A stretch of DNA of 64,000 nt, from the NCBI RefSeq assembly GCF_053078305.1, contig NZ_CP166879.1; one strand, given 5' to 3'. The position numbers were made by a program, and so were the translations under genes. Positions 6,885 through 29,688 of this stretch are shown here, one piece after another (position 1 is the stretch's first letter; every line of letters begins with the position of its first letter). The notes under the pieces were generated by a model. It had not been told where the DNA came from. It made no database searches and saw only the letters and a program-made list of their open reading frames with translations.

Positions 6885-6904
6885 CAAAAAAATTTCATAT
6901 GAAC

Positions 6905-7710: not shown

Positions 7711-7727
7711 GTTTTGAGGGGTAATTT

Positions 7728-12430: not shown

Positions 12431-12927
12431 TGCCTCCATCATTACGAAAAGCCGTTGCTGCTGCTATTGGTGGCGGAGCAATTGCTATAGCATCAGTGTT
12501 AATCACTGGCCCAAGTGGTAACGATGGTCTGGAAGGTGTCAGCTACATACCATACAAAGATATTGTTGGTGTATGGACTGTATGTCACGGGCATACAGGA
12601 AAAGACATCATGCTCGGTAAAACGTATACCAAAGCAGAATGCAAAGCACTCTTGAATAAAGACCTTGCCACTGTCGCCAGACAAATTAACCCGTACATCG
12701 AAGTCGATATACCGGAAACAACGCGCGGCGCTCTTTACTCATTCGTTTACAACGTGGGTGCTGGCAATTTCAGAACATCGACGCTTCTTCGCAAAATAAA
12801 CCAGGGCGATATCAAAGGCGCATGTGATCAGCTACGTCGCTGGACATATGCTGGCGGTAAGCAATGGAAAGGTCTCATGACTCGTCGTGAGATTGAGCGT
12901 GAAATCTGTTTGTGGGGTCAGCAATGA
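12430..12927 (+). CDS. R: SAR endolysin (signal-anchor-release lysozyme, R21-type)
   Basis: Hydrophobic N-terminal SAR domain ([20 protein letters not shown]) followed by a lysozyme-like domain. Confidence 0.85.
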
Positions 12928-13385
12928 ACAGAGTAACCGCGATTATCTCCGCTCTGGTTATCTGCATCATCGTCTGCCTGTCATGGGCTGTTAATCATTA
13001 CCGTGATAACGCCATTACCTACAAAGCCCAGCGCGACAAAAATGCCAAAGAACTGAAGCTGGCGAACGCGGCAATTACTGACATGCAGATGCGTCAGCGT
13101 GATGTTGCTGCGCTCGATGCAAAATACACGAAGGAGTTAGCTGATGCGAAAGCTGAAAATGATGCTCTGCGTGATGATGTTGCCGCTGGTCGTCGTCGGT
13201 TGCACATCAAAGCAGTCTGTCAGTCAGTGCGTGAAGCCACCACCGCCTCCGGCGTGGATAATGCAGCCTCCCCCCGACTGGCAGACACCGCTGAACGGGA
13301 TTATTTCACCCTCAGAGAGAGGCTGATCACTATGCAAAAACAACTGGAAGGAACCCAGACGTATATTAATGAGCAGTGCAGATAG
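12924..13385 (+). CDS. Rz: Spanin inner-membrane subunit Rz
   Basis: [39 protein letters not shown]... matches lambda Rz as recalled. Confidence 0.85.
13144..13326 (+). CDS. Rz1: Spanin outer-membrane lipoprotein Rz1, embedded in Rz in the +1 frame
   Basis: [24 protein letters not shown]...PPPPPAW... with lipobox and proline-rich stretch; matches lambda Rz1 as recalled. Confidence 0.8.
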
Positions 13386-13416
13386 AGCTGCCCATATCGA
13401 TGGGCAACTCATGCAA

Positions 13417-13701
13417 TTATTGTGAGCAATACACACGCGCTTCCAGCGGAGTATAAATGCCTAAAGTAATAAAACCGAGCAATCCATTTACGAATGTTTG
13501 CTGGGTTTCTGTTTTAACAACATTTTCTGCACCACCACAAATTTTTGCTGCATCGACAGTTTTCTTCTGCCCAATTCCCGAAACGAAGAAATGATGGGTG
13601 ATGGTTTCCTTTGGTGTTACTGCTGTAGGTTTGTTTCCAACAGTAAACGTCTGTTGAGCACATCCTGTAATAAGCATTGCCAGAGCGGCAGAAAACAACA
13701 T
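13417..13701 (-). CDS. bor: Bor lipoprotein (serum-resistance-associated)
   Basis: Lipobox LITGC and ...ETITHHFFVSGIGQKKTVDAAKICGGAENVVKTETQQTF... match lambda Bor as recalled; the lambda N-terminal MKK is absent because the A-run is one nt shorter. Confidence 0.85.
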   Translation of the reverse strand: MLFSAALAMLITGCAQQTFTVGNKPTAVTPKETITHHFFVSGIGQKKTVDAAKICGGAENVVKTETQQTFVNGLLGFITLGIYTPLEARVYCSQ

Positions 13702-13876
13702 TTTTTCATCTTATTATCCTGCATTGTTAAAAACGGCAGAATCCTATGTGACAACAATTAAACGATAGTTAAATGGATTGATGAAAATTAAAACTATATA
13801 GGTGGATGCTCAGCCTATTGGAGGAGGGGGGGCACTCAGAATCCTGTGGAATGAAATAAACCGCTCTATCTGTCCA

Positions 13877-14101
13877 TTACCCTTTTAGCTGCGCTGTATC
13901 GTCGCCGTATTCCCGCATTAACCATGACCGTAGCCCGACGGGGAATTCCTTCTGCGTGAGTGTGCGGGAATAATCAAAAACGATGCACACCGGGTTTTTA
14001 CCGCGTTTATGGTTCGCGGGGGTGTCCCTCATGCTCGCCAGTCCTGTGCGGGGGTGGAAGAAACAGGACGTGTATTCAGGTCTGTGTGACTGTGGTCGCA
14101 A
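13877..14101 (-). CDS. Hypothetical protein between bor and cos
   Basis: 74-aa ORF; positional analogue of lambda/DLP12 ORFs downstream of bor; no motif recognised. Confidence 0.3.
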   Translation of the reverse strand: MRPQSHRPEYTSCFFHPRTGLASMRDTPANHKRGKNPVCIVFDYSRTLTQKEFPVGLRSWLMREYGDDTAQLKG

Positions 14102-14149
14102 GACTTTTGTCGTTCAGCTATTAAATCCCATTACGAAGTAGACCAGAAC

Positions 14150-14375
14150 GGCCAACGGGTCCTTTCCGGCGATCCGACAGGTTACGGGGCGGCGACCTCG
14201 CGGGTTTTCGCTATTTATGAAAATTTTCCGGTTTAAGGCGTTTCCGTTCTTCTTCGTCGTAACTTAATGTTTTTATTTAAAATACCCCCTGAAAAGAAAG
14301 GAAACGACAGGTGCTGAAAGCGAGCTTTTTGGCCTCTGTCGTTTCCTTTCTCTGTTTTTGTCCGTGGAATGAACA
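14150..14375 (+). promoter_or_regulatory. Helper prophage cos site (cosQ-cosN-cosB); cosN cohesive-end sequence GGGCGGCGACCT at 14187-14198
   Basis: gttacggggcggcgacctcgcgggttttcgctatttatgaaaattttccgg matches the lambda cos region as recalled and sits directly upstream of Nu1. Confidence 0.85.
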
Positions 14376-14895
14376 ATGGAAGTCAACAAAAAGCAGCTGG
14401 CTGACATTTTCGGTGCGAGTATCCGTACCATTCAGAACTGGCAGGAACAGGGAATGCCCGTTCTGCGAGGCGGTGGCAAGGGTAATGAGGTGCTTTATGA
14501 CTCTGCTGCCGTTATAAAATGGTATGCCGAAAGGGATGCTGAAATTGAGAACGAAAAGCTGCGCCGGGAGGTTGAAGAACTGCGGCAGGCCAGCGAGGCA
14601 GATCTCCAGCCAGGGACTATTGAGTACGAACGCCATCGACTTACGCGTGCGCAGGCCGACGCACAGGAACTGAAGAATGCCAGAGACTCCGCTGAAGTGG
14701 TGGAAACCGCATTCTGTACTTTCGTGCTGTCGCGGATCGCAGGTGAAATTGCCAGTATTCTCGACGGGATCCCCCTGTCGGTGCAGCGGCGTTTTCCGGA
14801 ACTGGAAAACCGACATGTTGATTTCCTGAAACGGGATATCATCAAAGCCATGAACAAAGCAGCCGCGCTGGATGAACTGATACCGGGGTTGCTGA

Positions 14896-14921
<26 letters not shown>
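14376..14921 (+). CDS. Nu1: Terminase small subunit Nu1
   Basis: 181-aa protein near-identical to lambda Nu1 as recalled (MEVNKKQLADIFGASIRTIQNWQEQGMPVLRGGGKGNEVLYDSAAV...). Confidence 0.95.
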
Positions 14922-17850
<2,929 letters not shown>

Positions 17851-17977
17851 TTATGTCTATCATCTCCCCGTAGTTGTCCGCATCGTTCGCCAACTCCACT
17901 GAAACCCTTGCTGCGGCTGGAATGTCGTTTTCCATACTTTTGATGACCGTTCATCACACTTCCAGGTTTTCGCGGTT

Positions 17978-18031
17978 TTGTGTATTGCAATGTGTATTGC
18001 AAATTGGCGATCGGGATGGGTGTGTATTGCA
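17978..18031. repeat. Three copies of TGTGTATTGCAA upstream of the island integrase (attL-proximal, putative integrase binding sites)
   Basis: Copies at 17978-17989, 17990-18001 and 18020-18031; the same motif occurs in tandem at 29588-29610 near the other island end. Confidence 0.7.
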
Positions 18032-18050
18032 AATCTCTTGAGGGCTGTTA

Positions 18051-19292
18051 ATGGCTATTGAAAACAAACTCAGTGACAAACTGTTAAAGAGTCTTGTCGG
18101 AAAACGGCAGGACAAACAAAAAACAATAGCGGATGGGCGCGGGTTGTCTGTGCGTGTAAGCATGGTTGGGGGGATCAGCTTTGTTTTTTACTATCGTCTT
18201 GGTGGCAGGGAATCCCCTCCGGTATGGCTTACACTTGGGCGCTATCCTGATATGTCTCTTGCAACAGCCAGGCGCATGCGTGATCAGTGCCGTGAGTGGC
18301 TGGCTGAAAATCTGGACCCCCGCAGGCAAATAAAACTTGCCGCCGAAAAAACCATGCAACCAGTGACCGTAAGGGATGCGCTGTTTTACTGGTACGACAA
18401 TCACGCCACAACAGCCAGAAAAGAGCATGAATATTTAATAAAACGATTTGAAAAGCATATCTTCCCCTATATCGGTGATATGGCTATAGAACAGTGCAAA
18501 TTACACACATGGCTTGCCGTCTTTGACAGGATCAAAAAAAATGCGCCTGTTATGTCTGGTGCAATTTTTCTTGATATCAAACAGGCGTTGCGTTTTTGTC
18601 GCGTCAGGCAATACATCGCGTGCGATCCCTTTGGCGATATTAACGTAAGTTATGTCGGGCGCTCATCCGGTATAAGGGATCGCGTTCTTAATATCAATGA
18701 AACAGCGGATGTATGGTCTTATGCTTACGGTAATAATTTGCTGACACTGTCATCAATACATAACAGAAGAATAATGGTTATCTGCCTGGTGTTTGGTTGC
18801 CGTCAGCAGGAGGCGAGGTTATCCACATGGGACGAATGGGATTTAAAAAACTGGGTATGGACAGTCCCAAAAGAGCACAGCAAAAACAAGGAGGCCATAG
18901 TAAGGCCTGTTCCTGACGGCATAAAACAATGGCTCGTTAATCTTTACGCAGAAACAAAAAATCGCGGTTATGTTGTCGGTTGTGCTTTGCAAAGGGCGAC
19001 AATAACAGGGGCTGCAAACAGAATATGCAGGCGTCTTGGTCATGATATTAATGGCTTGTGGTGCATACATGATTTCAGGCGCACATTTTCCACTGCGCTT
19101 AATGATATGGGGGCGGATCCTTATATTGTCGAACTTCTTTTAGGTCATAAAGTGAAAGGGGTTGCCGGTGTTTACAATAAAAGCAGGCATATAAAGAAAA
19201 AACTTGAGGTGCTTAATATGTGGGTTAATTACCTTAATACGATAGCAGGATTTAACAACAACGTTATCGAGCTTAATAAAGAGGTGGTGTGA
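18051..19292 (+). CDS. int: Tyrosine integrase (P4-type, N-terminal arm-binding DUF4102-like domain)
   Basis: 413-aa ORF; N-terminal region resembles P4-family integrases; C-terminal catalytic motifs HDFRRTF, LLGH and VYNKS (Tyr). Confidence 0.9.
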   Translation: MAIENKLSDKLLKSLVGKRQDKQKTIADGRGLSVRVSMVGGISFVFYYRLGGRESPPVWLTLGRYPDMSLATARRMRDQCREWLAENLDPRRQIKLAAEKTMQPVTVRDALFYWYDNHATTARKEHEYLIKRFEKHIFPYIGDMAIEQCKLHTWLAVFDRIKKNAPVMSGAIFLDIKQALRFCRVRQYIACDPFGDINVSYVGRSSGIRDRVLNINETADVWSYAYGNNLLTLSSIHNRRIMVICLVFGCRQQEARLSTWDEWDLKNWVWTVPKEHSKNKEAIVRPVPDGIKQWLVNLYAETKNRGYVVGCALQRATITGAANRICRRLGHDINGLWCIHDFRRTFSTALNDMGADPYIVELLLGHKVKGVAGVYNKSRHIKKKLEVLNMWVNYLNTIAGFNNNVIELNKEVV

Positions 19293-19293
19293 T

Positions 19294-19551
19294 ATGGCAA
19301 TTTATTCTCTTGTTGATGAAAACGATTTGCGCACAATGAAGGACATTGATCGGTTCATTCGTGAAAAAGAGTGCATAGCACTTACCACGCTGGCAAACTC
19401 AACACGCTGGAAAATGGAGCAGGCAGGTAAATTCCCGCGACGTATCAAGATCGGTGAACGTGCGGCAGGGTATCGACTTTCAGAGGTTCAGGCATGGATC
19501 CGTGGTGAGTGGCATCCTGGATGGAAACCTGGAAAAACAAAACAGCAATAA
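19294..19551 (+). CDS. alpA: AlpA-family excisionase/transcriptional regulator
   Basis: 85-aa HTH protein (ALTTLANSTRWKMEQAGKFPRRIKIGERAAGYRLSEVQAWI) immediately downstream of int. Confidence 0.7.
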   Translation: MAIYSLVDENDLRTMKDIDRFIREKECIALTTLANSTRWKMEQAGKFPRRIKIGERAAGYRLSEVQAWIRGEWHPGWKPGKTKQQ

Positions 19552-19605
19552 CCAGTAAATAACGCCCCTCATCAAGAGGGGTTTTTGTCTATAGGGTAAA
19601 ACGCG

Positions 19606-20184
19606 ATGAATAAAAATATTGCCGTGACGGGCAAGGGGTACGCTCGTCCAGTGAAAAAATTCTGTGATATTCGTGATCTTGTCGTTCTGCGCTTTGATGG
19701 TGTGAGCGTTCGCGTGGTGTATGTGAACGGCGATCCGTGGTTTGTTGCCGTTGACGTGTGCGCTGCGCTGGAAATTGTTGATCACAAGGTTGCGTTACGC
19801 CGTCTCGATGATGATGAAAAGGGGGAGTGTTTAATACCCACCCCAGGTGGAAATCAAACAATGCGAACGGTATGCGAGTCAGGGTTCTACAAACTAATCG
19901 CCAGAAGTCGGAAAGCTGTTACTCCTGGCACGTTCGCCCGTCGTTTCAGTAACTGGGTATTCAGAAATGTGATACCAGGTATCAGAAAAACGGGGGCTTA
20001 TGGTATCCCGTGGGGGGCATTACAGGATTTTTCCCGCCGTAAAGAGCAATATCAAATAAGTGCCAGCGAGAAGGGGAGGGAGCTACAGGCATGTAAGCGC
20101 AAAAAACGTGAACTGGAGGAAGAAGAAAAAAGGCTGATACGTGAATATCAGCCTGAGTTTTACTTTGGTGAGCGTATTCAGTAA
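19606..20184 (+). CDS. Bro-N domain protein (prophage antirepressor-like)
   Basis: N-terminal Bro-N-like region (VRVVYVNGDPWFVAVDVCAALEI...FYKLIARSRKA) with a charged coiled C-terminus. Confidence 0.6.
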   Translation: MNKNIAVTGKGYARPVKKFCDIRDLVVLRFDGVSVRVVYVNGDPWFVAVDVCAALEIVDHKVALRRLDDDEKGECLIPTPGGNQTMRTVCESGFYKLIARSRKAVTPGTFARRFSNWVFRNVIPGIRKTGAYGIPWGALQDFSRRKEQYQISASEKGRELQACKRKKRELEEEEKRLIREYQPEFYFGERIQ

Positions 20185-20521
20185 CCACACGCGGTGCTGA
20201 TTATACGGTACATCGTGTTAACCGAGAAGCTACCCACCAGCAAGGCAAAATCTTCTGCTAAAAAATGACATATGGCCAGTCGTCCGGAAAGCATGAAATT
20301 TTACAAAAATGGAAAATGAAGATTTTTATTGTGCTGGTGGGTAAAAACAAAAAGCGCCCCGTTGCCGGAGCGCCCTTGTGAACAATTAACCTGCTGCGAA
20401 AAAATTGGATCAGTGCAGGGAAATTATATCAACTGTGTGAAGAAGCGCCACAATTGCCAGTTTAGCTTTGCGGCGAACGCGTCAATAAAGAATATTCTTT
20501 CTTTAAATTCTGTTTGTGTAT

Positions 20522-20551
20522 TTTTTCGTAGTTTTTCGTAGTTTTTCGTAA
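20522..20551. repeat. Tandem decamer repeat (TTTTTCGTAG)x3 in island intergenic region
   Basis: ttttttcgtagtttttcgtagtttttcgtaagg; a related palindromic motif cgaaattttcgtag occurs at 29194-29207. Confidence 0.8.
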
Positions 20552-20647
20552 GGAGAAAGAGCGGCGCGTATGCACCGCTAAGGAGTTTATTTTCATGACT
20601 TATGCAGCTTTCAATCTTAGCACCGCCGTAGCTGGTGGACAAGGCTA

Positions 20648-20875
20648 TCAGCCAGGCGGTCGGTTTTTAGTGGCTTTTAACCGCCGTGGGTATTTCTCGA
20701 CAAAATCTTCAAGGGCAAATTTTTCTGGTGGCACTAAGCGCGGCGCTGGTGGTGGTATTTTTGTTCTGGTTAGTTCTTCCTCAAGTCTGGCGCAGGCTTC
20801 TAACTGCCTTTGCCGGATGATTTCATCATCTTGCGTTTGCGTGTCTTGTATTGGTGATAGTGTGTTGTTGGTCAT
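20648..20875 (-). CDS. Hypothetical protein (island, leftward operon)
   Basis: 75-aa acidic ORF downstream of the RHH gene on the minus strand; weak RBS. Confidence 0.35.
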   Translation of the reverse strand: MTNNTLSPIQDTQTQDDEIIRQRQLEACARLEEELTRTKIPPPAPRLVPPEKFALEDFVEKYPRRLKATKNRPPG

Positions 20876-20932
20876 GATACTGCCCTGTAAAGCAATGCGC
20901 CGGAGTACCTCACGCCACGGCGCTGATAGTGA

Positions 20933-21238
20933 TTATTCTGATTCTTGGGTCTTGCGACGCTGGAGTTCTTCGCGTGCAACGGTGACAAGTTGCCCGATTT
21001 CTTCCGCTGCTTTGATGCCGATTTGTTCGACCTTAGCCAGAGCATCCAGTGAAGACACAAGGGGATTTTCTCCGCTGCCTTCTGCCTGGCGGCGGGCGAT
21101 TTCACCGCGCATGGCGGTTACTATGAATCCGGCGTTGCTTTCACCGTCCAGTTTTACGGATTCCATGCCTTCAATAACATCATGCGGGATCCGAGCTGTC
21201 AGTGATTGTGATTTTGCGTTTTTTGAACCTGTAGCCAT
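20933..21238 (-). CDS. Ribbon-helix-helix (CopG/Arc-like) putative regulator, divergent from the island rightward operon
   Basis: SLTARIPHDVIEGMESV resembles an RHH beta-strand plus helix; ATG 21238 with RBS gaggat preferred over the TTG at 21253. Confidence 0.45.
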   Translation of the reverse strand: MATGSKNAKSQSLTARIPHDVIEGMESVKLDGESNAGFIVTAMRGEIARRQAEGSGENPLVSSLDALAKVEQIGIKAAEEIGQLVTVAREELQRRKTQESE

Positions 21239-21797
21239 CTGTAATCCTCTCAATGAAAGTGTAAGACAATATACACATAAAAAGTCTTACATAAAAGCAT
21301 TGACATGTAAGCCACCTATAAATAAAGTTACTTACACCTTGTTAATGCAAGGTGCAGAAACGACGAAACCCGGCAGTGCGCTAACACTAACCGGGCTTCT
21401 AACCACCAACGATAGAAAGCGTATCGAGGTAGCTATGAGAAATCATACCACACACCCGCAAGGGCGGGACTCGCACAACCTGAATAAATACATCTGGCGT
21501 TTTCTGGCCCGAAAAAACCAGTTGATCGCCAGTGTCGAAAATAGCTATGATTCCCGCGCACCTCATAAAACGGGTGCCGGGATTGGCGTCCTGGGCAAAA
21601 CTGAAGCGCATAACACGCGCCCCGCGTGTTTTTTTGTGCCGCATAGTCACACCTTATCAATGGTGGGCTGTACGGGGGCGGAGCAATCCGCGCCGGTTTC
21701 TTCAGTGTCCGGTTACGCCAACCCTGTACAGTCCGCCACCAGCGAAATTGGCGTTTCCGGTGGCGGTTATCTTAACCACACTGAGGAGGCTGCCAAC

Positions 21798-21989
21798 ATG
21801 GCTACTATCCCTACCCTTGTACATTCTCAAACCGCCTTTCTCTGGCGCTTTATCATCTTTGGCGCGTCAGACCATCAAATCATCCACGTCACCGCCTGGA
21901 CGGAACGCGAAGCGCGTAGCCGTTGCCCGTCCGGTTGTGTTGCTGTATTCGCCGCCCGTATTCGTCAGGAGGTGTGCCATGTGCAATAA
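21798..21989 (+). CDS. Icd-like small protein (host cell-division inhibitor family, tentative)
   Basis: 63-aa ORF with strong RBS gaggagg; MATIPTLVHSQTAFLWRFIIFGASDHQIIHV... recalled as resembling Icd-like proteins of P4-type islands; it is the only plausible part of ORF 20595-21989. Confidence 0.4.
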   Translation: MATIPTLVHSQTAFLWRFIIFGASDHQIIHVTAWTEREARSRCPSGCVAVFAARIRQEVCHVQ

Positions 21990-22431
21990 AACCACACCGG
22001 ACGCAGCCGCCGCGCTCACTACACTGATGCACGCGCTGATTGATATTTCTGTTATTGCTGACAGGGCGCATAAGCACGCCACCAGTGAAACAGAATATGC
22101 CGGGGCTTTCGTTCCTCATTCGCTGGCGGTTATGCAACTTAGTGCTGATATGGCGCTGAATGAGGCCAAAGCTATCCTGATTTCTGATTGTGAAAATGGG
22201 GGGGGGGTTATGCGTGATGATCGTTTTAATGCCCTGAAACAGGAGTTTGATGGTGCGCCTGATGATGCAGGTGATGCGCTTTCGTCAATATCCGAACTGA
22301 TAAGAGTGGCCTTTTTCTTACTTGGCACGAAAGAATATAAATCAACTGGAATAGACGTACTGAATATTACTGCTGATTATGCGGAATATATGGCAGAAGT
22401 GGATTTAAGAAAGATAACGGACAGGGGGTAA
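21979..22431 (+). CDS. Hypothetical protein (island early operon)
   Basis: RBS aggagg before ATG 21979; the upstream part of ORF 21532-22431 is rejected as a spurious extension. Confidence 0.5.
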   Translation: MCNKTTPDAAAALTTLMHALIDISVIADRAHKHATSETEYAGAFVPHSLAVMQLSADMALNEAKAILISDCENGGGVMRDDRFNALKQEFDGAPDDAGDALSSISELIRVAFFLLGTKEYKSTGIDVLNITADYAEYMAEVDLRKITDRG

Positions 22432-22432
22432 T

Positions 22433-22666
22433 ATGCGTGATATTTACCACGAAACAATAGACCGCGCATTTAGTGCCCTTGCTTACGCTGAAGGTATGTA
22501 CGAAATATTGCAAATGTGTCTGGAAACATTTGGCGATAATGAGCGTGATGTAAAGAAGGCGCGGATTATTAAATCACTGATAACTCTCCTTGAACCTGTA
22601 ATAACAGAGTTGCAGGAAATAGACTTATTGCACGACAGATATAACGAACAGCACACCGGAGAATAA
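22433..22666 (+). CDS. Hypothetical protein
   Basis: 77-aa ORF tightly packed after the preceding gene (start 2 nt after its stop). Confidence 0.45.
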   Translation: MRDIYHETIDRAFSALAYAEGMYEILQMCLETFGDNERDVKKARIIKSLITLLEPVITELQEIDLLHDRYNEQHTGE

Positions 22667-22671
22667 AAATA

Positions 22672-22971
22672 ATGAAACTTAAATATCCTGGCTTAACTGC
22701 CAGTGGCAACACTCACCCTAAATTTACGCGCGGTGATATTTACCGCGACCAGTACGGCGGCACGGTAATGATTAAGGGCGTGGCGGGACGGTGCGTAACT
22801 TACCGCCGTGAAGGCTACGAATATGATTGCGTGATGCCTGTTTATCAGTTCCGGCGTGATTTTTCTCTGGTACAGACCGCGCCGCATAACGTGCCCACCA
22901 GCAACGCCAGGGCACGGGCAAACATCCAGAAGCTGAAAACCATGATTAACGGATTCAGGGGTAAAAAATGA
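22672..22971 (+). CDS. Hypothetical protein
   Basis: 99-aa ORF; 3' end overlaps the rep start by 4 nt. Confidence 0.45.
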   Translation: MKLKYPGLTASGNTHPKFTRGDIYRDQYGGTVMIKGVAGRCVTYRREGYEYDCVMPVYQFRRDFSLVQTAPHNVPTSNARARANIQKLKTMINGFRGKK

Positions 22972-24377
22972 AACTGGCACCGAACGTAAAACGATTACCG
23001 AAAGATAAATACACCGAAGCGGTTATTTTTGCGGGTATTGATGCTCACTCATTCGCAGAGCATTACATCATTGCACAGGCCAAAAAAGCAGGCGATCCAG
23101 TCCCTCCCGTTTATCTGGGGCGTTATCAGTTAAGCGAACTGGATAACCTCCAGATTGTTGATGATGGGCGATACAGGGCGACGGTGATACGCGCCGGAAA
23201 TATTGAAGAGCCGCAGCTGTTAACCATCGCCACGAAACTGGCGAGCGCCGGAGTCCAGGAGGCGCGGCTACTTTCTGAAAATTTCGAATTGCTGGAGGAA
23301 TGGAGCGACCAGCTTCCACGGCTTAGGGAGGCATGGGAACGCGGGGAAAGCCTGGTCATGAAAAAAATTCCCCAGCGAAAAACCACGCTACCGATGAGCG
23401 TTGGATCTACCGGATACGACACACAGCTTGATTACGTGGTAAAGGGGATTATTCCGGCATCGTCGCTTTGCAGCATATACGGGGCGAGCGGTTCCTATAA
23501 ATCATTCCTTGCCGGATCGTGGGCGTGTCACGTTTCCACGGGCCGCCAGTGGGGAGGCCGCAGGGTGGCGCATGGCGCTGTTCTCTATGTGGTTGGTGAA
23601 GGCGGTATCGGCGTTCCGCGTCGTGTAAAAGCCTGGGAGGTTGTGCACGGTGAGCAGGTGAAAAATCTGTATCTGGTAAACCGTCCCATCTTTCCGGCTG
23701 TCCCGCTTGATGTTGATGAACTGGTTATTGCTGCCAGTCAGGTGGAGAGGGAAACGGGTAAACCTGTTCGCATGATTATTCTGGACACGCTGGCGCGTTG
23801 CTTTGGCGGCAATGATGAAAATGACTCCCGCGACATGGGGGCATTTATCCGTGGTTGTGACGAGCTTAAACGGCGCACAGGGGCTACGGTGCTGGTGGTT
23901 CACCATTCCGGCAAGGATGAAACAAAGGGGGCGCGTGGTTCCAGTGCATTTCGTGCATCACTGGACGCTGAATACCGGATACGCAGGGAGGACGCAGGAA
24001 GCGAAGCGCTGGTTATCTCATGCACCAAAATGAAGGACGCGGAGGAACTCAAAGAGGCTGCCTATGATTTGCGGGTGGTGGAGCTTTTTACCGACGCTGA
24101 CGGGGAGTTAATTACGTCGCTGGTGGTGGTGGATAAGCCGCGCCCTCCCGTTGAACTGGAGCGCATCGAGGAGGCAGGCAACAAGACGGAAAACCATACC
24201 GCGCTATGGGGGTGCATCCGTTCACGCACACAGAACGGCGACAAGTGCACGATCCCGCTGTTACGTGACGATATGAAAAAGCTGGGGTATGACACAAAAC
24301 ACCTTAAACGATGGTTAGCCAAACTGGAAAAAGACGACGTGATCTACATTGACGGTGATGATGTAGGACCACTGTAA
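22968..24377 (+). CDS. rep: Replication initiator/helicase (RepA-like AAA_25 RecA-fold ATPase with N-terminal primase-C-like region)
   Basis: Walker A-like SIYGASGSYKSFLA, Walker B-like RMIILDTLAR, and TVLVVHHSGKD; followed directly by an iteron array. Confidence 0.75.
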   Translation: MKLAPNVKRLPKDKYTEAVIFAGIDAHSFAEHYIIAQAKKAGDPVPPVYLGRYQLSELDNLQIVDDGRYRATVIRAGNIEEPQLLTIATKLASAGVQEARLLSENFELLEEWSDQLPRLREAWERGESLVMKKIPQRKTTLPMSVGSTGYDTQLDYVVKGIIPASSLCSIYGASGSYKSFLAGSWACHVSTGRQWGGRRVAHGAVLYVVGEGGIGVPRRVKAWEVVHGEQVKNLYLVNRPIFPAVPLDVDELVIAASQVERETGKPVRMIILDTLARCFGGNDENDSRDMGAFIRGCDELKRRTGATVLVVHHSGKDETKGARGSSAFRASLDAEYRIRREDAGSEALVISCTKMKDAEELKEAAYDLRVVELFTDADGELITSLVVVDKPRPPVELERIEEAGNKTENHTALWGCIRSRTQNGDKCTIPLLRDDMKKLGYDTKHLKRWLAKLEKDDVIYIDGDDVGPL

Positions 24378-24582
24378 AAAGTGGGCATTAAAAGTGGGAA
24401 AGGTGGGCGATTTAACGTAATTTTAACAAAATCACCCACTTTCCCACGTGTATATATCCCAAAAAGTGGGCACTAAAAAAATACCTATGAAACAAGATGA
24501 TATAAATCCCAAACTTCCCACGTTGGACGAAGTGGGAAAACGTAAAAAGTGGGCGAAAAAAGTGGGTAGAGGTGGGCAAATG
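24375..24582. repeat. Island origin of replication: iteron array with GTGGG core (AAAGTGGGCA/AAGTGGGAAA, direct and inverted copies)
   Basis: About 8 direct and 3 inverted copies of (A)AGTGGG(C/A) within ~200 bp immediately 3' of rep. Confidence 0.7.
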
Positions 24583-24831
24583 ACTCAAAAACACAGAGAC
24601 AGAACAGAGCCAAAATATAAAGCGTTAGACATGACAGAGCACGCTTTAAAGGTGGCAATCAGGGTAATAGACCGCCACACGCGGGAAGGATACGCGAAGG
24701 AACATCCCGACCTGATAAGCGCATTCATGACCACAGCGGCGGCAAACTTTGCCACGCTGACAGAACGGGAGATAGCCGAAGCGGAACAGGTAACAACCAT
24801 CAACGTTAAAACCGGAGAGGTGGAATCATGA
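24580..24831 (+). CDS. Hypothetical protein
   Basis: In-frame ATG just after the iteron array; the upstream part of ORF 24448-24831 overlaps the iterons and is unlikely to be coding. Confidence 0.4.
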   Translation: MTQKHRDRTEPKYKALDMTEHALKVAIRVIDRHTREGYAKEHPDLISAFMTTAAANFATLTEREIAEAEQVTTINVKTGEVES

Positions 24832-25238
24832 CAGCACAGATAGCCGCTTACGGGCGGCTGGTGGACGACCCGCAGGTAAAACAAACCAGCAAGGGCACAC
24901 CGATGACGCTGGCGCGTATGGCGGTATCTCTGCCATGCAGCCAGGCACAGGACGGGCAGGCTACGTTATGGCTATCAGTGATGGCATTTGGTAAGCAGGC
25001 CGACTTCCTGGCTAAACATCAAAAAGGCGATGTTGCCAGCGTATCCGGCACGATGCAGGTAAGCCAGTGGACCAGACAGAACGGGGAAACGCGGCAGGGT
25101 TATCAGGTTATTGCAGACAGTGTAATCAGTGCCCGTGCTGCCCGTCCTGGCGGGAGCAGACGTACAACCACAGGCACACAGGGTAATCAGCCACCAGCGG
25201 GAGGCGATGACCCTTACGGTGACGGTATTCCGTTCTGA
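24828..25238 (+). CDS. ssb: Single-stranded DNA-binding protein (SSB-like)
   Basis: OB-fold signature (LWLSVMAFGKQADFL...KGDVASVSGTM) and acidic C-terminal tail DDPYGDGIPF. Confidence 0.7.
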   Translation: MTAQIAAYGRLVDDPQVKQTSKGTPMTLARMAVSLPCSQAQDGQATLWLSVMAFGKQADFLAKHQKGDVASVSGTMQVSQWTRQNGETRQGYQVIADSVISARAARPGGSRRTTTGTQGNQPPAGGDDPYGDGIPF

Positions 25239-25248
25239 GGGGGTGACG

Positions 25249-25521
25249 ATGGTACATGACCGCATAGCGGAGGAACTCGAGGCAAAAGGCTTTTACCGGA
25301 GGGCGGCGGCGCGATGGGGTGAAGTTATGCAGCTGGTGGAGACAGACAAGGAACGGCATCAGGTTACGATGCGACGGCTGGAATGTTCCAGGAAGGCACA
25401 GAGGCCACCGGAGCCGCCGGATAACTTCGGAGACCTGAAAAAAGCAGTAGATCGCACTTATGCCGAAATGGGTATGGATGGTGTAAGCGATGAAATATGG
25501 CGTAATTACCCAGACAGCTAA
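25249..25521 (+). CDS. PerC-family transcriptional activator-like protein
   Basis: AEELEAKGFYRRAAARWGEVMQLVETDKERHQV resembles the PerC/Pch signature; RBS gagggg; real start internal to ORF 25129-25521. Confidence 0.5.
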   Translation: MVHDRIAEELEAKGFYRRAAARWGEVMQLVETDKERHQVTMRRLECSRKAQRPPEPPDNFGDLKKAVDRTYAEMGMDGVSDEIWRNYPDS

Positions 25522-25527
25522 TCAACA

Positions 25528-25549
25528 GCCGGAGAAATCCGGCTTTTTT
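25528..25549 (+). terminator. Intrinsic terminator (GCCGGAGAAATCCGGC + T6)
   Basis: Perfect hairpin plus T-run directly after the PerC-like gene; the identical hairpin recurs at 27802-27824. Confidence 0.7.
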
Positions 25550-25561
25550 GTACCCAAAAAA

Positions 25562-25598
25562 AGCCCGATAAGTACAGGAGGCATCTTATCGGGCTTTT
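25562..25598 (+). terminator. Second tandem intrinsic terminator
   Basis: agcccgataag...cttatcgggct hairpin followed by tttt. Confidence 0.55.
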
Positions 25599-25676
25599 GC
25601 ATATGAGGTTTTTTTGGTGCACTGACACACATGATCGGGGTAATCATTTCATAATTTGCAACACAACTCAACATCA

Positions 25677-25737
25677 TTGCACAAAATGCAATCCTGATTA
25701 TAATCAGAGCTGGATGAACATCCAGTTCTGATTTTTT
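25677..25737 (+). promoter_or_regulatory. Sigma70-like promoter followed by a hairpin and U-run, upstream of the island capsid/packaging operon
   Basis: TTGCAC (25677-25682), 16-nt spacer, TATAAT (25699-25704); hairpin ctggatg-aa-catccag (25710-25725) then ttctgatttttt. Confidence 0.5.
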
Positions 25738-25760
25738 AAGTCAAAGAGGAATTTCTTACT

Positions 25761-25967
25761 ATGGCTGAAGAGAAAAAAGGCGGTGTTTCGGTGTACATAA
25801 GCCCCGAAATCGTGGAGGTGCTCAAGCAGCGCCACAAAAAAAACTATGAGGCTGGCGTAGCGGCTGGACTGGATCCGCTGATGACGCCGGAGCCGTCGAT
25901 AGGTTCACTTGTGCGCTCTTATTTACTTGCGGCGCTTGGGATGCATAAAAATTATGGTGGTGAATAA
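25761..25967 (+). CDS. Hypothetical small protein (first gene of island morphogenetic operon)
   Basis: 68-aa ORF with RBS agagga; stop overlaps the capsid gene start. Confidence 0.4.
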   Translation: MAEEKKGGVSVYISPEIVEVLKQRHKKNYEAGVAAGLDPLMTPEPSIGSLVRSYLLAALGMHKNYGGE

Positions 25968-27022
25968 TGACAGTAAAAGCAATGGCACTTACAACTAACC
26001 AGCTTTTCGCGTACCTGAATCGCGGGGATATTGCAGAATTTAAATTCAGTCCGCTGTTTACCACGCTGTTTTTCCCGAACGTGGCGACCTTCAACACCCA
26101 GAACATCATGCTGGACACCCTGGACATTGAAGAGGTTACGATGTCAGCGTTCTGTTCGCCTATGGTGGGTAGTCAGGTCCAGCGCGATAAAGGGTACGAA
26201 ACCAGCACGATTAAACCAGGCTACATGAAACCCAAACACGAAATCGATCCAACAAAAACCATCATGCGCATGGCTGGAGAAGATCCGGCACAGCTTAACG
26301 ACCCTACCTACCGCCGTATGCGCCTGATTACTGGCAACATGCGCCGCCAGATAAACGCCATTAAAGCGCGCGTGGAATGGCTGGCGGTGAATGCGATAAC
26401 GACCGGAAAAAACATCATTGAGGGCGAAGGCATAGAACGCTATGAAATCGACTGGAAAATACCGGAAAACTGCATCATAGAGCAGGCCAAGGGTAAAAAA
26501 TGGTCCGAGCATGATAAAGATATTTACGATCCAATCTATGACATCGAACTATACGCAGATCAGGCAGGTTGCCCCGCCAACGTCATGATTATGGGCGCTG
26601 AGGTATGGCGCACGTTACGCAGCTTTAAAAAATTCCGCGAACTGTACGATCTTTCCCGTGGTTCAGAATCCGCCGCAGAACTGGCCTGTAAAAACCTGGG
26701 TGAAGTAGTGAGCTTTAAAGGCTATCTGGGCGATATTGCCCTTATCGTCTATTCCGGCAAATACACTGACAGCGACGGTACCGAAAAATATTTCCTTGAG
26801 CCTGATTTGCTGGTCCTGGGTAACACCAACAATAAAGGGCTGGTGGCCTATGGTGCGATTATGGATCAGGAAGCGGTAAGAACGGGCGCAACGCAAAACA
26901 TGTTCTACCCGAAAAACTGGATTGAAGACGGCGATCCGGCGATTGAGTACGTTCAGACGCACAGCGCACCGCAGCCGGTACCGGCAGATATTCGCAAATT
27001 TGTTACCGTCAAAATTGCTTAA
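25967..27022 (+). CDS. Major capsid protein homologue (diverged lambda gpE-like, HK97 fold)
   Basis: Collinear with the helper E at 32160-33185: FKFSPLFTTLFF / FKFDPLFLRLFF, KPGYMKPKHEIDP / TPGYVKPKHEVNP, DPTYRRMRLITGNMRRQINAI / DPAYRRRRIIMQNMRDEELAI. Confidence 0.8.
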   Translation: MTVKAMALTTNQLFAYLNRGDIAEFKFSPLFTTLFFPNVATFNTQNIMLDTLDIEEVTMSAFCSPMVGSQVQRDKGYETSTIKPGYMKPKHEIDPTKTIMRMAGEDPAQLNDPTYRRMRLITGNMRRQINAIKARVEWLAVNAITTGKNIIEGEGIERYEIDWKIPENCIIEQAKGKKWSEHDKDIYDPIYDIELYADQAGCPANVMIMGAEVWRTLRSFKKFRELYDLSRGSESAAELACKNLGEVVSFKGYLGDIALIVYSGKYTDSDGTEKYFLEPDLLVLGNTNNKGLVAYGAIMDQEAVRTGATQNMFYPKNWIEDGDPAIEYVQTHSAPQPVPADIRKFVTVKIA

Positions 27023-27033
27023 CGGGGGATTCT

Positions 27034-27369
27034 ATGGACACTCCATACATTGAGTTATTTGCAGGCAGTCAGCAGGTATCCACGACGCTGGTACATTTTG
27101 CCGCTGATGCTGGCGTTATTCAGGAATTTACCCCGCTGATGCTGGCGGACAATGGCGAGTTTAAGCCGTGGGATGGTCAGGAATCTGGCAAGGCTGTTTA
27201 TCTGACCTCGTACCCCGTGGACACGTCAAAGCAGAAATCAGCACAGTGTTACAAGACGGGGATATTTAATATCGCCGCCGTAAACTGGCCTGAGAGCGCC
27301 GACACTGACGCGAAAAAATGCGCCGCCTTTGCGGGTTCTGGCGTATCCGTTCAGCCGCTGGCGCGATAA
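27034..27369 (+). CDS. Head decoration protein homologue (diverged lambda gpD-like)
   Basis: 111 aa; TPLMLADNGEFKPWDG...AAFAGSGVSV parallels the helper D (31766-32104) [17 protein letters not shown]...[11 protein letters not shown]. Confidence 0.7.
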   Translation: MDTPYIELFAGSQQVSTTLVHFAADAGVIQEFTPLMLADNGEFKPWDGQESGKAVYLTSYPVDTSKQKSAQCYKTGIFNIAAVNWPESADTDAKKCAAFAGSGVSVQPLAR

Positions 27370-27381
27370 GCAGGGGAAACG

Positions 27382-27795
27382 ATGGCAACGAATGAAAGCA
27401 TCATGGCGCTACCGCTGGCGAGTAAATTTAAAGCAGAAGCGCGGGCAATGGCTGACAGAGGTTTATCAACCTACGAGGCCGTATATCAACTCAACAAACT
27501 GGAAGAGCAGGACAAGCCGCGCGCTGATGCGATTATGGCGCTTCATGAACATAACGACTATCAGCCGCTGTTACGTGCAATGGCAAACGTGCCATGTATT
27601 AGCGTCGATAATGCTCGTGAAATCCTGAACATGACCATAGAGCAGGAGCGCCCAAAGGTTGCGCCGGAGCTTACCGCAGCCTTTGAAAACTTTATGGACA
27701 TGCACAGCCCGAAAGCCGTATCACCCGGCATGGCATACGACGGCAGAAACCAGGGCGATGAAGGCGACGTCGATCGCATACTGAAAACCATCTGA
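27382..27795 (+). CDS. Hypothetical protein (island morphogenetic operon)
   Basis: 137-aa ORF followed by a strong terminator; no family recognised. Confidence 0.45.
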   Translation: MATNESIMALPLASKFKAEARAMADRGLSTYEAVYQLNKLEEQDKPRADAIMALHEHNDYQPLLRAMANVPCISVDNAREILNMTIEQERPKVAPELTAAFENFMDMHSPKAVSPGMAYDGRNQGDEGDVDRILKTI

Positions 27796-27801
27796 CATAA
27801 G

Positions 27802-27824
27802 GCCGGAGAAATCCGGCTTTTTTT
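27802..27824 (+). terminator. Intrinsic terminator (GCCGGAGAAATCCGGC + T7)
   Basis: Same hairpin as at 25528; ends the capsid operon just before the island cos. Confidence 0.7.
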
Positions 27825-27825
27825 A

Positions 27826-27895
27826 CGGGTCCTTTCCGGCATATGGACCCGTTACGGGGCGGCGACCTCGCGGTTTTTCGCTATTTATGAGCTTT
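27826..27895 (+). promoter_or_regulatory. Island cos site: cosN identical to the helper (GGGCGGCGACCT at 27857-27868), with a distinct downstream cosB-like region
   Basis: gggtcctttccggc...gttacggggcggcgacctcgcggtttttcgctatttatga aligns with the helper cos at 14155-14222, then diverges before terS. Confidence 0.7.
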
Positions 27896-28001
27896 TTTCG
27901 GGTGCTGGTGGTGGTTTTGTTTTTCGCTCTATCTCTATGAATAAAAAGGGAAAGATAAAACCAATACACCAACCTGAAACATTACTTAAGTGGGGATATT
28001 G

Positions 28002-28544
28002 ATGAAATCGCACCTGATGAACAAAAAAAACATGGCGCAAAGCTGCCGTGTAAGTGCGACAGCGTTCGACAAGTGGGGAGTGACTCCCGTTGAACGTAAA
28101 GGACGCGAGGCTTTTTACGATGTTGCCAGCGTGATAGACAATCGGGTAAGCAATGCAATTAACCAGGTTACAAACGACAAAGGCGAGATTGATGATGATG
28201 AACTCTTACGAGTCAGGATCAGATTACTGACCGCCCAGGCTGAGGCGCAGGAACTTAAAAACGAGCGCGATCGCGGTGACGTAATTGATACTGAGTTTTG
28301 CCTGTACGCGCTTTCAAAGCTGGCGAGTCAGATTTCTTCAATCATGGACAGTTTGCCGCTTACCATGCAAAGGCGCTTCCCGCAGATTACTCCCGCTATG
28401 CTGGATGGGCTTAAAAGGGAAGTGGTTAAAGCCTGTAATGCCAGTGCCACAGTTGCCGACAACCTCCCGAAGATACTGGCTGATTACCTGATGGAAACTA
28501 CCGGAGACGTACCGGAGAAGTTGCTACAGAAGAAAGGCGAGTAA
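28002..28544 (+). CDS. Terminase small subunit homologue (Nu1-like, divergent N-terminal DNA-binding region)
   Basis: C-terminal two-thirds collinear with Nu1 (LTAQAEAQELKNERDRGDVIDTEFCLYALSKLASQISSIMDSLPLTMQRRFPQI vs LTRAQADAQELKNARDSAEVVETAFCTFVLSRIAGEIASILDGIPLSVQRRFPEL); N-terminal ~50 aa diverged. Start 28002 chosen by RBS. Confidence 0.75.
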   Translation: MKSHLMNKKNMAQSCRVSATAFDKWGVTPVERKGREAFYDVASVIDNRVSNAINQVTNDKGEIDDDELLRVRIRLLTAQAEAQELKNERDRGDVIDTEFCLYALSKLASQISSIMDSLPLTMQRRFPQITPAMLDGLKREVVKACNASATVADNLPKILADYLMETTGDVPEKLLQKKGE

Positions 28545-28689
28545 CAGACGCGCAATTATTGAACAAAAGTAAGGCCCGACATGAAATCACCCAAAAATGC
28601 CTTTTTCATGCGTTTGTATGTCTGACCTTTTACGGTTTCGATATTATAAAAAACAAATAGTTACGCTCGAGAGGTACCGACACGCATTT

Positions 28690-28775
28690 TTCAGGAAAAT
28701 TTTCATAAACAGATAAAAACCGCGAGGTCGCCGCCCCGTAACGGGCCATAATTCCAGGAAGGACCCGACGACACC
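28690..28775 (-). promoter_or_regulatory. Second cos-like site in inverted orientation (cosN at 28725-28736, minus strand), helper-like flank
   Basis: Minus-strand read gttacggggcggcgacctcgcggtttttatctgtttatgaaaattttcc shares ttatgaaaattttcc with the helper cosB side; no terminase gene lies downstream in this orientation. Confidence 0.6.
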
Positions 28776-28800
28776 AGGCTATCAGAACGATGAGGGCACA

Positions 28801-29082
28801 ATGACAGAAGCCGAACTACTGGGATTAATCCGCTACGTTACCGGAATCAGCCAGCAGCATGACGAACAGGCCACGCAGCCGGACAGCGTGACCGCTGAAA
28901 ATTATGCGCGTGTTGTTGCTGAGGTGATGCGCCGTGATGGTATCCAGCTTAATGATGCAGATATGCGCGACATACGGATCCGCGTTCTTGAAATGCTGGC
29001 CTACCGTCGCCGCGTGCAGACGTACAGGGAAAAAGCAAAAATAACGTACCAGTGGAAGAAGCCGGAGCGATTACGGCGGTAA
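28801..29082 (+). CDS. Hypothetical protein
   Basis: 93-aa ORF near the right island end; no family recognised. Confidence 0.4.
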   Translation: MTEAELLGLIRYVTGISQQHDEQATQPDSVTAENYARVVAEVMRRDGIQLNDADMRDIRIRVLEMLAYRRRVQTYREKAKITYQWKKPERLRR

Positions 29083-29477
29083 CTTGCTGATATTCCCGAT
29101 AACGCAAAATTGCGCTCTGTCCTAACCCGTTGATATTTTCGGGAACAGCCAACGGCTGAGGCCGGAACAACGATTATCTTTCAGATAGTCAGAGCTACGA
29201 AATTTTCGTAGTTTAATTACTCGCCAGTTTATCGTTAACTCGTTGATATTTTCGGTAACCTCAATTTGAGGAGATCGGAAACATAACCCTTCACATTCTG
29301 AATGGTTATAATGACCACTCAGACCATCAAGGCAACCATAACGAACATCGTTACGGTTGGAGCTTTTACCCCACTGGGGGGAAGGTGCACATCTGGATCA
29401 TCATTACCGTGATCAAGGGTATGTAAAACCCACCAGCCTGATTAACTGTTAACCGGAAAAAAGCCAGGTAGCCAATC

Positions 29478-29501
29478 TCGATATGGGGATCCCCATATCG
29501 A
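29478..29501. repeat. Perfect 24-bp palindrome TCGATATGGGGATCCCCATATCGA
   Basis: Exact inverted repeat centred on GGATCC within the ~600-bp non-coding right arm of the island. Confidence 0.9.
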
Positions 29502-29587
29502 CATTAACGCCCCCTAGAACTGCGCATATCTGCATATAAAAACATCCACCAGCTTTATGACGGATGCCGCTCATCTGATAAATAATC

Positions 29588-29610
29588 GTGTATTGCAATG
29601 TGTATTGCGA
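29588..29610. repeat. Two tandem copies of (T)GTGTATTGC(A/G)A near the island right end (attR-proximal)
   Basis: gtgtattgcaatgtgtattgcga; same motif as the attL-proximal triplet at 17978-18031. Confidence 0.7.
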
Positions 29611-29688
29611 CTCCTTTAAACGATAGGTTTGAGCATTCGTAATGTACTGTTTTTAAATTTTATTTTTTCCTGTCTTTTCATAAAAGCC

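Follow-up and report, generated by a model that had tools for sequence, protein, structure and literature searches.

The window analysed here, a 64,000-nucleotide stretch of contig NZ_CP166879.1 (assembly GCF_053078305.1), is a lambdoid prophage whose portal gene is split by a satellite of the helper-embedded phage-inducible chromosomal island (HE-PICI) type. The non-coding right end of this satellite carries a tandem array of ~53-nt units, each combining a consensus sequence for integration host factor (IHF) with a palindrome, and the same unit occurs within the rha and roi genes of lambdoid phages. We infer that this right end of the PICI works as DNA and not as a gene. Our tentative reading, which we would place slightly below probable, is that the unit array may form a DNA-level platform that binds IHF and is able to bind Rha/Roi-type proteins as a decoy or sensor, with Chi sites that would spare the DNA of a satellite lacking Gam.

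The non-coding region comprises the 609 bp between the stop codon (29082) of an open reading frame (ORF) of 93 amino acids (aa) and the junction of the island with the portal gene (~29691). A preliminary description of the region had called it the ~600-bp right arm of an island, which is correct because of this span; it is the attR-proximal arm, 29083-29691. The arm has three parts, namely repeat units (29078-29286), a conserved end block (29423-29513), and an integrase-specific arm (29514-29691). The same description reported no ORF of 60 aa or more inside the region, in agreement with the ORF listing: a minus-strand 73-aa ORF (28949-29170) overlaps only its first 88 bases, and another minus-strand ORF, at 29449-29598, has 49 aa. 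The homology of the units to rha/roi, two Chi sites, and the separate integrase-specific module at 29514-29691 were missed, and the coordinate errors of the description amount to 1-5 nt.

The motif TTGATATTTTCGG, to which attention had been drawn, is the core of the ~53-nt unit, in which a perfect minus-strand IHF consensus (WATCARNNNNTTR) with an A-tract abuts a two-tier palindrome; the minus-strand box reads AAAATATCAACGGGTTA or AAAATATCAACGAGTTA. Two copies of cgttgatattttcgg are present, although at 29128-29142 and 29241-29255 and thus 1 and 2 nt lower than first noted, and they lie inside a 45-nt repeat with 73% identity between its copies (29123-29167 and 29236-29280). A third, degenerate copy of the repeat (29080-29103) overlaps the upstream stop codon. 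The three units, A, B, and C, are listed with their IHF consensus sequences in Table 1. Unit A has a palindrome type resembling that of the unit inside P22 rha, and in the predicted fold of unit B the outer helix is TTTCGG/CCGGAA and the inner helix CAGCC/GGCTG. Three of the nine matches to the perfect IHF consensus in the 64 kb of the window fall within 170 bp on one strand (29080-29248). When 177 kb of window, helper, and chromosomal sequence was searched with a covariance model of the unit (R1), all matches lay on the plus strand of right arms, and the box of R1 can be aligned with the IHF site that the phi80 record annotates at attP. The earlier suggestion that the symmetric and repeated motifs are protein-binding DNA stands to the extent that the repeated motif is a perfect IHF consensus and that the arm carries an integrase-clade motif (29587-29608), the binding at both being predicted. 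A literature search for the motif strings returned nothing save one unrelated eukaryotic paper.

Right arms were collected from E. coli genomes and from 80 IMG/VR loci found via the 93-aa ORF, giving 43 distinct arms. The WATCARNNNNTTR consensus with its A-tract is present in 54/54 distinct units from these arms, partly by construction as extraction required TAA and TGA (six bases fixed), and the stricter WATCAA is present in 37. The arms contain 0-6 units each, arranged head to tail with adjacent units 43-54 nt apart, with their own linker and all trimmed to ~50 nt. The inner stems vary yet stay complementary (AGCC/GGCT, CCTCAA/TTGAGG, CCTGCA/TGCAGG, CCCCCA/TGGGGG, TTCGCC/GGCGAA, and others). 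In 24 units that could be aligned almost without gaps, 86% of the cells were paired, eight of the 11 pairs were changed on both sides, and none of 500 shuffles reached the covariation score; shifting the partner by one column dropped pairing to 57%.

The arm folds better than its shuffles on both strands (z = -6.0 on the plus and -5.9 on the minus strand). The perfect 24-bp palindrome TCGATATGGGGATCCCCATATCGA of the preliminary description is exact at 29478-29501, and ~0.004 such palindromes are expected per 64 kb (64000 x 4^-12). Chance does not explain the palindrome, the folding, or the repeat.

The unit within phage rha and roi genes

When IMG/VR was scanned for the box pattern, many of the loci obtained had no 93-aa ORF, and in these R1 gives a single copy of 50-60 bits. 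The phage copy sits in an ORF on the opposite strand encoding ...GVIRLPQIEDCGRINGLGLNQ..., and the proteins are Rha/Roi (Phage_pRha domain, plus ANT in HK022 Roi). The unit lies in the Phage_pRha-coding part of these genes, one copy each, with R1 scores of 55 bits in PhiR49_2 roi, 36 in P22 rha, and 23 in HK022 roi. Blastn searches with the phage-type unit matched 55 phage records, all annotated ones being roi, anti-repressor, KilA, or DNA-binding protein. With 29243-29284 of the window (unit C) as the query, they recovered genes annotated as “Roi”, “Rha family transcriptional regulator”, and “DNA-binding protein”, and the unit C type occurs in roi genes of HK620, Shiga toxin (Stx) phages, and other lambdoid phages. 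Units A and B had no blastn match in phages, these queries being too short and diverged. In the phage coding copies 82% of the cells are paired, 6/11 pairs are compensated, and 0/500 shuffles were as good, while the peptide changes alongside the compensated palindrome (PQIE, PPMG, PPTV, PPME, and PALQ). With the palindrome preserved through compensatory changes in spite of a varying peptide, selection in phages acts on the rha/roi element at the nucleic-acid level, inside a coding sequence.

Roi of HK022 is said to bind within its own gene next to an IHF site, with IHF stabilising the binding, and rha has reportedly been described in phi80 and P22. The phi80 sequence record notes rha as “DNA synthesis inhibition in IHF- hosts”, and the title of Clerget and Boccard (1996; J Bacteriol 178:4077), as given in citing papers, links Roi to IHF mutants. 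The link of rha/roi to IHF is independent of the consensus match.

The satellite units and the rha/roi element share the same ~53-nt unit as recognised by one covariance model, the same IHF consensus, the same fixed distance from consensus to palindrome, and the same palindrome types (CCTCAATTTGAGG, CCCCATTGGGG, CTGCAATGCAG, and GCGCAAAAATGCGC). Judging from this homology, the unit is derived from, or common to, the phage rha/roi genes. The two differ in that the phages have one copy per genome in the Phage_pRha coding sequence, whereas the satellite copies are non-coding and tandem (up to six), run opposite to local transcription, and lie at the satellite end. In the window they follow the unrelated 93-aa ORF, and a Pfam scan of eleven island proteins gave no Phage_pRha match. 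Because the sequence and structure are those of the rha/roi element but the copies do not lie inside a pRha gene, we regard the array as a non-coding, tandem variant of it. The satellite copies are not ordinary gene remnants, as they are non-coding, trimmed to ~50 nt, and ordered head to tail; stop codons interrupt their roi frame (reading of unit C).

It seems quite improbable to us that the units are functionless debris, that is, rha/roi leftovers captured with phage cos ends and multiplied by unequal crossing-over in an arm that serves as tolerated spacer or as a landing zone for cargo and insertion sequences (IS). This explanation fits the location of rha in P22 and phi80, where it lies between the lysis genes and cos/pac, as the minus strand of the satellite shows the same order with the units followed by cos2. 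It also fits the mosaicism of the arms, which have breakpoints at the units and a copy number of 0-6, and the insertions recognised by eye (an IS3-family orfA-like frame in arm L014 and an apparent reverse-strand coding sequence in L026), together with a deletion into phoQ in L064. It does not fit the uniform trimming and tandem order, as decay would not trim many independent fragments to ~50 nt nor order them head to tail, and it does not fit an IHF consensus that is intact in all the distinct non-coding units. Moreover, the arm holds no other rha/roi sequence, compared with the coding copies the outer helix of the satellite units is longer and their A-tract better, and the arm is present in ~1,180 of 5,426 complete E. 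coli genomes.

The units may instead act in RNA, a possibility that we consider unlikely. No terminator lies between the 93-aa ORF and the units, which are therefore transcribed as the tail of the late operon, and they could function as a structured 3' untranslated region or as antisense to rha/roi mRNA. The hairpins could shield the operon mRNA from 3' exonucleases as repetitive extragenic palindromic (REP) sequences do, or loop-to-loop pairing with helper rha/roi transcripts could silence an inhibitor of phage DNA synthesis. The overlap of the first unit with the ORF stop codon, the lack of a plus-strand terminator-like site before the junction, the folding at z = -6, and the plus-strand location of every unit, which makes them antisense to the reading frame of rha/roi, agree with this explanation. 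In addition, G.T wobbles outnumber A.C on the plus strand of the satellite units by 37 to 6 (p = 1.6e-6), which favours plus-strand folding. On the other hand, the minus strand folds equally well, per-unit folding energies show no strand bias (29 vs 25 units, p = 0.34), and the wobble excess lies almost wholly in three outer-helix positions that coincide with the IHF A/T tract. Rfam gave no match at E ≤ 1 over 27500-31000. The asymmetric IHF consensus is kept in all units, though an antisense role against conserved rha/roi would keep it too, and the complementarity is weakened by differences at several positions between the common satellite box ATATTTTCGG and the most frequent roi sequence ATTCTTCCAC. 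Finally, the helpers examined, those of the window and of E. coli A0 34/86, have no rha/roi.

End block, Chi sites, and integrase-specific arm

Between satellites whose integrases differ, homology invariably ends at 29513 (query ends 954 and 431), the right edge of a conserved terminal block. Satellites beside phoQ, clpS, and allC have other integrases and different packaging modules (TerS, TerL, or a 146-aa ORF), and 29083-29513 always follows the 93-aa ORF. As the units are common to unrelated integrases and sites and number 0-6 per arm, the alignments argue that 29083-29513 is satellite backbone and not the attP of one integrase. Apart from the unit, this backbone segment was not found in bona fide phages.

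The most conserved core of the terminal block is CCACCAGC, which is a minus-strand Chi octamer. A minus-strand Chi falls exactly at the block in 29 of the 31 distinct arms that have it, and at least one Chi is present in 33/43 arms. The integrase-specific arm of the window holds the second Chi, embedded in a weak hairpin (29541-29568) with a terminator-like score on the minus strand. The whole window contains 17 Chi sites vs 2.4 expected, of which 15 belong to the satellite and two to the chromosomal flank, while the helper has none in ~38 kb; the satellite sites span 20234-29553 (1.27 per kb), and no Chi occurs in 1-17850 or 29692-50000. Four other satellites have 0.7-1.3 Chi per kb vs 0 in their helpers, and the helper of the A0 34/86 satellite encodes Gam. 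The satellite density is about six-fold higher than the E. coli average. Most of the Chi sites to the left of cos lie on the plus strand, and both sites to its right lie on the minus strand; they are thus placed facing the cos ends. The cos ends, at ~27865 or 28729, lie left of both arm Chi sites, which by the orientation rule would be in the active orientation for RecBCD moving rightwards from a cos-cut end; RecBCD moving leftwards meets plus-strand Chi at 27904, 26839, 25332, and beyond. Chi is said to protect linear and rolling-circle DNA from RecBCD and reportedly is over-represented in phages without RecBCD inhibitors. The satellite resembles such phages in having exact octamers at this density in an element without gam, and none in the Gam-encoding lambdoid helper. 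The contrast points to a way in which the DNA of a satellite that encodes no nuclease inhibitor could withstand RecBCD. No paper linking Chi to PICIs was found in our literature search.

Right of the terminal block, 29514-29691 is common only to other portal-gene satellites (~94% identity) and is the integrase's own arm, which was already known. The doubled motif of this arm includes a 21-nt exact repeat GTGTATTGCAATGTGTATTGC (29588-29608) with a twin at 17980-18000 (partner copy 17979-18000), and one further single copy of the motif occurs at 18021-18032. For HE-PICIs a doubled TGTATTGC motif has been published, one copy lying 81 bp upstream of the attP centre and the other 132 bp downstream (PMC10111431), and the distances in the window agree with these, given junctions at ~29690 and ~17850.

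The preliminary description had proposed an attP-proximal recombination enhancer. It was close in spirit, as the region appears to be accessory DNA, but an enhancer in that sense is not supported. That the IHF sites and palindromes shape an excisive or integrative intasome, as an accessory part of the integrase's attP/attR, is a poorly supported and very improbable explanation. IHF sites are standard in the attP arms of tyrosine integrases (lambda H1, H2, and H'), and the arm adjoins attR. The published HE-PICI attP analysis found no IHF-like motif near the core and in its one sentence on IHF states that the arm motif does not resemble IHF sites (PMC10111431), which leaves room for an IHF requirement. 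Unlike lambda attP, in which H1, H2, and H' lie within ~150 bp of the crossover, the satellite units lie 400-610 bp away, the nearest perfect IHF consensus (29236-29248) being ~440 bp from it, and none occurs in 29514-29691 or 17851-18050. The units are also shared by satellites with unrelated integrases and target sites (phoQ, clpS, allC, and portal), whereas everything right of 29513 changes with the integrase, and neither their copy number (0-6 per arm) nor their spacing is fixed.

The 24-bp palindrome lies within the terminal block. Its 14-bp core ATGGGGATCCCCAT is kept in most relatives, whereas the outer 5 bp per side lack conservation and changes on one side only are frequent; the symmetric variant GGTGATCACC, with the central GATC retained, occurs in one arm (L054). 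Several GATC (Dam) sites occur in the right half of the arm (29395-29416), with one at the exact palindrome centre (29486-29491). The conservation of the core and of the central GATC is what an operator would show, and a small regulatory RNA gene, or operators of a satellite repressor, centred on this palindrome would account for it. We regard this explanation, likewise poorly supported, as the most improbable of those considered. The small RNA gene proposed earlier is not supported, as there is no Rfam match, no pair of promoter and terminator, and no strand that folds better than the other; promoter-like sites in the arm occur at the level of shuffles, and the arm has no plus-strand terminator. 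Over the whole window, Rfam matched only C4, isrK, IS009, and one tRNA, all outside the region. Local blastn gave no second copy of the palindrome near any satellite promoter in the window. As for the operators of the preliminary description, the rha/roi-derived units may effectively be such, and the 14-bp palindrome core is also a candidate. The hairpins were ruled out as intrinsic terminators, having no U-tracts.

The palindrome that had been given as cgaaattttcgtag exists but is really CTACGAAA-T-TTTCGTAG, with 8-nt arms, and a compensated variant (TGCGAAA/TTTCGCA) is found in the L008 arm. Three further palindromes between 29283 and 29385 show some compensated changes among relatives, e.g., ACCCC/GGGG vs CCACC/GGTGG. 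Arms L042, L054, and L009 have an extra module (e.g., L042 positions 60-100) of four GTGACA repeats ~11 bp apart, followed by a canonical terminator GACGTGGCCAACGTCATTTTTT; this GTGACA-repeat module is not present in the arm of the window.

Possible role and relation to known systems

In the platform reading that we tentatively prefer, IHF would bend the DNA at each unit, and Rha/Roi-type proteins of incoming or resident phages would dock on the palindromes, so that an array with several palindrome types would serve as a decoy or sensor for phage regulators. The end block and the integrase arm would each contribute one Chi facing RecBCD from a cos-cut end, by which the DNA of the Gam-less satellite may be spared and remain recombination-proficient. 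The last 180 bp are the integrase's own arm with presumed arm-type sites.

Several observations count against this reading. The helper prophage of the window has no rha/roi gene and, by R1, no unit, and the annotated helper of the A0 34/86 satellite has no rha/roi either, so that neither case calls for a decoy against the resident helper. Units number 0-6 and some arms lack them altogether, which means that their function, if any, is dispensable or insensitive to dosage. The excess of G.T over A.C is more in keeping with folding of a plus-strand RNA or single strand than with duplex DNA. Inheritance from different rha/roi alleles, and not selection in the satellite, could be the source of the palindrome variety. 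The terminal block is conserved well past the Chi octamer, and two arms keep the block without Chi.

A bolder idea, which we hold to be unlikely, is that enterobacterial PICIs carry a non-coding “anti-helper” locus. In it, operator-plus-IHF modules copied from rha/roi of many different lambdoid phages, each unit matching another phage allele, would form a tandem panel that captures or silences Rha/Roi-type regulators as decoy DNA or antisense RNA. Rha/Roi-type proteins inhibit phage DNA synthesis, and a satellite with such a panel could then sense, or keep productive, whichever helper it met. The panel would grow and shrink by unit shuffling and would be a protein-free counterpart of the protein-based interference genes of satellites.

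Work on PICIs and other satellites has centred on proteins, whereas the present element has a conserved non-coding end built from a discrete cis-element shared with rha/roi of lambdoid phages, Stx phages included. This provides a testable link between satellites and poorly understood phage regulators whose sole known phenotype is IHF-dependent. Interest in the array would grow considerably with proof that it targets the Rha/Roi regulators of helpers; should nothing bind, the region would be ordinary mosaic spacer DNA.

The arrangement recalls the RIB/RIP (BIME-1) elements of E. coli, which reportedly lie at the 3' ends of transcription units and consist of IHF sites with REP palindromes on their flanks. 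The satellite array is likewise a repeated combination of an IHF site with adjacent GC-rich palindromes after the last gene of an operon. It differs in that the units are confined to satellites and rha/roi genes and are not dispersed over the chromosome, and in that the palindromes are variable and not of one family. Membership in REP/BIME was rejected, as the REP core GCCKGATGCGRCGY has no match with ≤3 mismatches in 29083-29513, and its sole match in the wider arm (29559, 3 mismatches) is at chance level.

The HE-PICI class was described by Tommasini, Mageeney and Williams (2023; PMC10111431). As in the HE-PICIs of that paper, the satellite is inserted in a lambdoid late gene with which it is co-oriented, has the doubled tgTGTATTGCantgTGTATTGCa motif at the published distances, carries int and alpA at its left end, and has a Bro zone with C4/isrK RNAs. 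The paper covers only the integrase-proximal ~130 bp, and a search of its text gave no mention of the unit array, the terminal block, or Chi (PMC10111431). Earlier publications cover the integrase arm, the two cos sites, and the HE-PICI configuration, whereas the unit arrays, the terminal block, and the Chi enrichment of PICIs appear to be undescribed in the searchable literature. EcCICFT073 also has two cos sites (PMC6092414), and the cos-rpp-like layout shared by arms of the L009/L010 type suggests that the EcCICFT073/lambda system has the same end region.

Other identities were considered for the region. It is not a replication origin, as iterons sit at 24376-24561, nor a part of cos, as the cosN sites are elsewhere and satellites without cos2 keep the array. 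Resemblances to nut/boxA, ops/RfaH, and Xer/dif seen by eye were dropped since the matching bases are not conserved in relatives. An origin from the cos-Nu1 region of the helper was rejected; a 16/20 match to the 5' end of Nu1 was seen, and local blastn was at chance level except for the integrase arm motif.

The satellite and its surroundings

The features of the satellite and of its right arm are given in Table 1.

Table 1. Positions of the satellite, its cos sites, and the elements of its right arm in the window.
Feature	Position	Strand	Remarks
Helper-embedded PICI-type satellite	17851-29691	+	~11.8 kb, in portal gene
cosN of cos1	27857-27872	-	normal orientation, upstream of satellite TerS gene
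cosN of cos2	28721-28736	+	inverted relative to cos1; between TerS and 93-aa ORF
93-aa ORF	28801-29082	+	phrog_1561; always precedes non-coding arm; function unassigned
Unit A (degenerate)	29078-29112	+	R1 16.5 bits, E = 0.027
Unit A IHF consensus TATCAGCAAGTTA	29080-29092	-	small palindrome CGCAAAATTGCG
Unit B	29121-29173	+	R1 63.7 bits, E = 6e-15
Unit B IHF consensus TATCAACGGGTTA	29123-29135	-	A-tract precedes
Palindrome CTACGAAA-T-TTTCGTAG	29195-29211		conserved in many satellite arms
Unit C	29234-29286	+	R1 65.2 bits; inner palindrome CCTCAATTTGAGG
Unit C IHF consensus TATCAACGAGTTA	29236-29248	-
Three conserved hairpin-type palindromes	29283-29309, 29333-29359, ~29362-29385
Conserved terminal block of satellite backbone	29423-29513		alignment of 29 distinct arms
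Chi octamer GCTGGTGG	29430-29437	-	core of terminal block
24-bp palindrome TCGATATGGGGATCCCCATATCGA	29478-29501		within terminal block; central GATC
Integrase-specific arm of attR (P-arm side of attP)	29514-29691		alignment
Second Chi octamer	29546-29553	-	same orientation; in integrase-specific arm
Doubled motif tGTGTATTGCAATGTGTATTGC	29587-29608	+	presumed integrase arm-type sites, HE-PICI clade

The helper encodes Nu1 (14376-14921) and A (14896-16821), followed by the two portal halves (17021-17902 and 29629-30462), both of which are on the plus strand, as are the satellite genes. The junctions read gtgaaggcgat/ttatg on the left and aaagccat/gtatgcc on the right, and joining gtgaaggcgat (to ~17850) to gtatgccgcc (from ~29692) regains the intact portal reading ...VKA/MYAAT.... 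The same split of the portal gene and the same arrangement are found in E. coli A0 34/86 and FDAARGOS_1287. As judged from Pfam and PHROG matches for the proteins and Rfam for the C4 and isrK RNAs, the satellite begins with the tyrosine integrase gene int, alpA, Bro-N, and the isrK/C4 RNAs, continues with genes for a RepA-type helicase, iterons, and genes for SSB, PerC, lambda E/D-like capsid proteins, and a scaffold-like protein, and ends with a Nu1-like small terminase subunit (TerS), two inverted cos sites, the 93-aa ORF, and the non-coding arm. The satellite TerS gene is bracketed by the two inverted cosN sequences. The cosB of cos2 (28571-28742) is phage-21-like, with 81% identity to M81255 positions 161-331, and cos2 is not present in the portal-site satellites of A0 34/86 and FDAARGOS_1287.

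The last codons and the stop codon of the 93-aa ORF overlap the first repeat unit. Its 992 homologues are nearly all from Escherichia and every one is annotated as “hypothetical”; Pfam gave no match, and a scan of the contigs of species-representative genomes found no relatives. The AlphaFold2 model is all-helical (pLDDT 76), with no significant fold match in the PDB, and these results were uninformative as to whether the ORF encodes a binding protein for the region.

Several minor observations were made along the satellite. Three copies of AAAAAGTGGGCATTAAAA, spaced 83-85 bp apart (24376-24561), directly follow the RepA-type helicase gene and are probably the iterons of the satellite replication origin. 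A 464-aa low-complexity ORF (20595-21989) looks spurious; the same interval has a minus-strand 106-aa ORF (20933-21253), by eye like the YlcI/YnfO annotated at the same place in A0 34/86, as well as the isrK (21558-21634) and C4 (21656-21743) RNAs, with one Chi (21736-21743) inside C4. Three tandem copies of TTTTTCGTAG (20523-20552) lie in the Bro zone, just upstream of a hairpin (20560-20579) and of the Bro-zone RNAs, and a 12-nt match of TTTTCGTAGTTT, half of the 29195-29211 palindrome, to 20523-20544 does not exceed chance (E = 1.9). Two identical copies of a 22-nt terminator-like hairpin (GCCGGAGAAATCCGGCTTTTTT) are present, one at 25528-25549, after the PerC gene, and one at 27802-27823, after the scaffold-like gene and just upstream of cos1. 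In the satellite arm, a TTG start lies upstream of the C-terminal portal fragment and in frame with it (29629-29691; MSIRNVLFLNFIFSCLFIKA/MYAAT...), so that the integrated state could yield a shortened portal protein whose N-terminus is encoded by the satellite.

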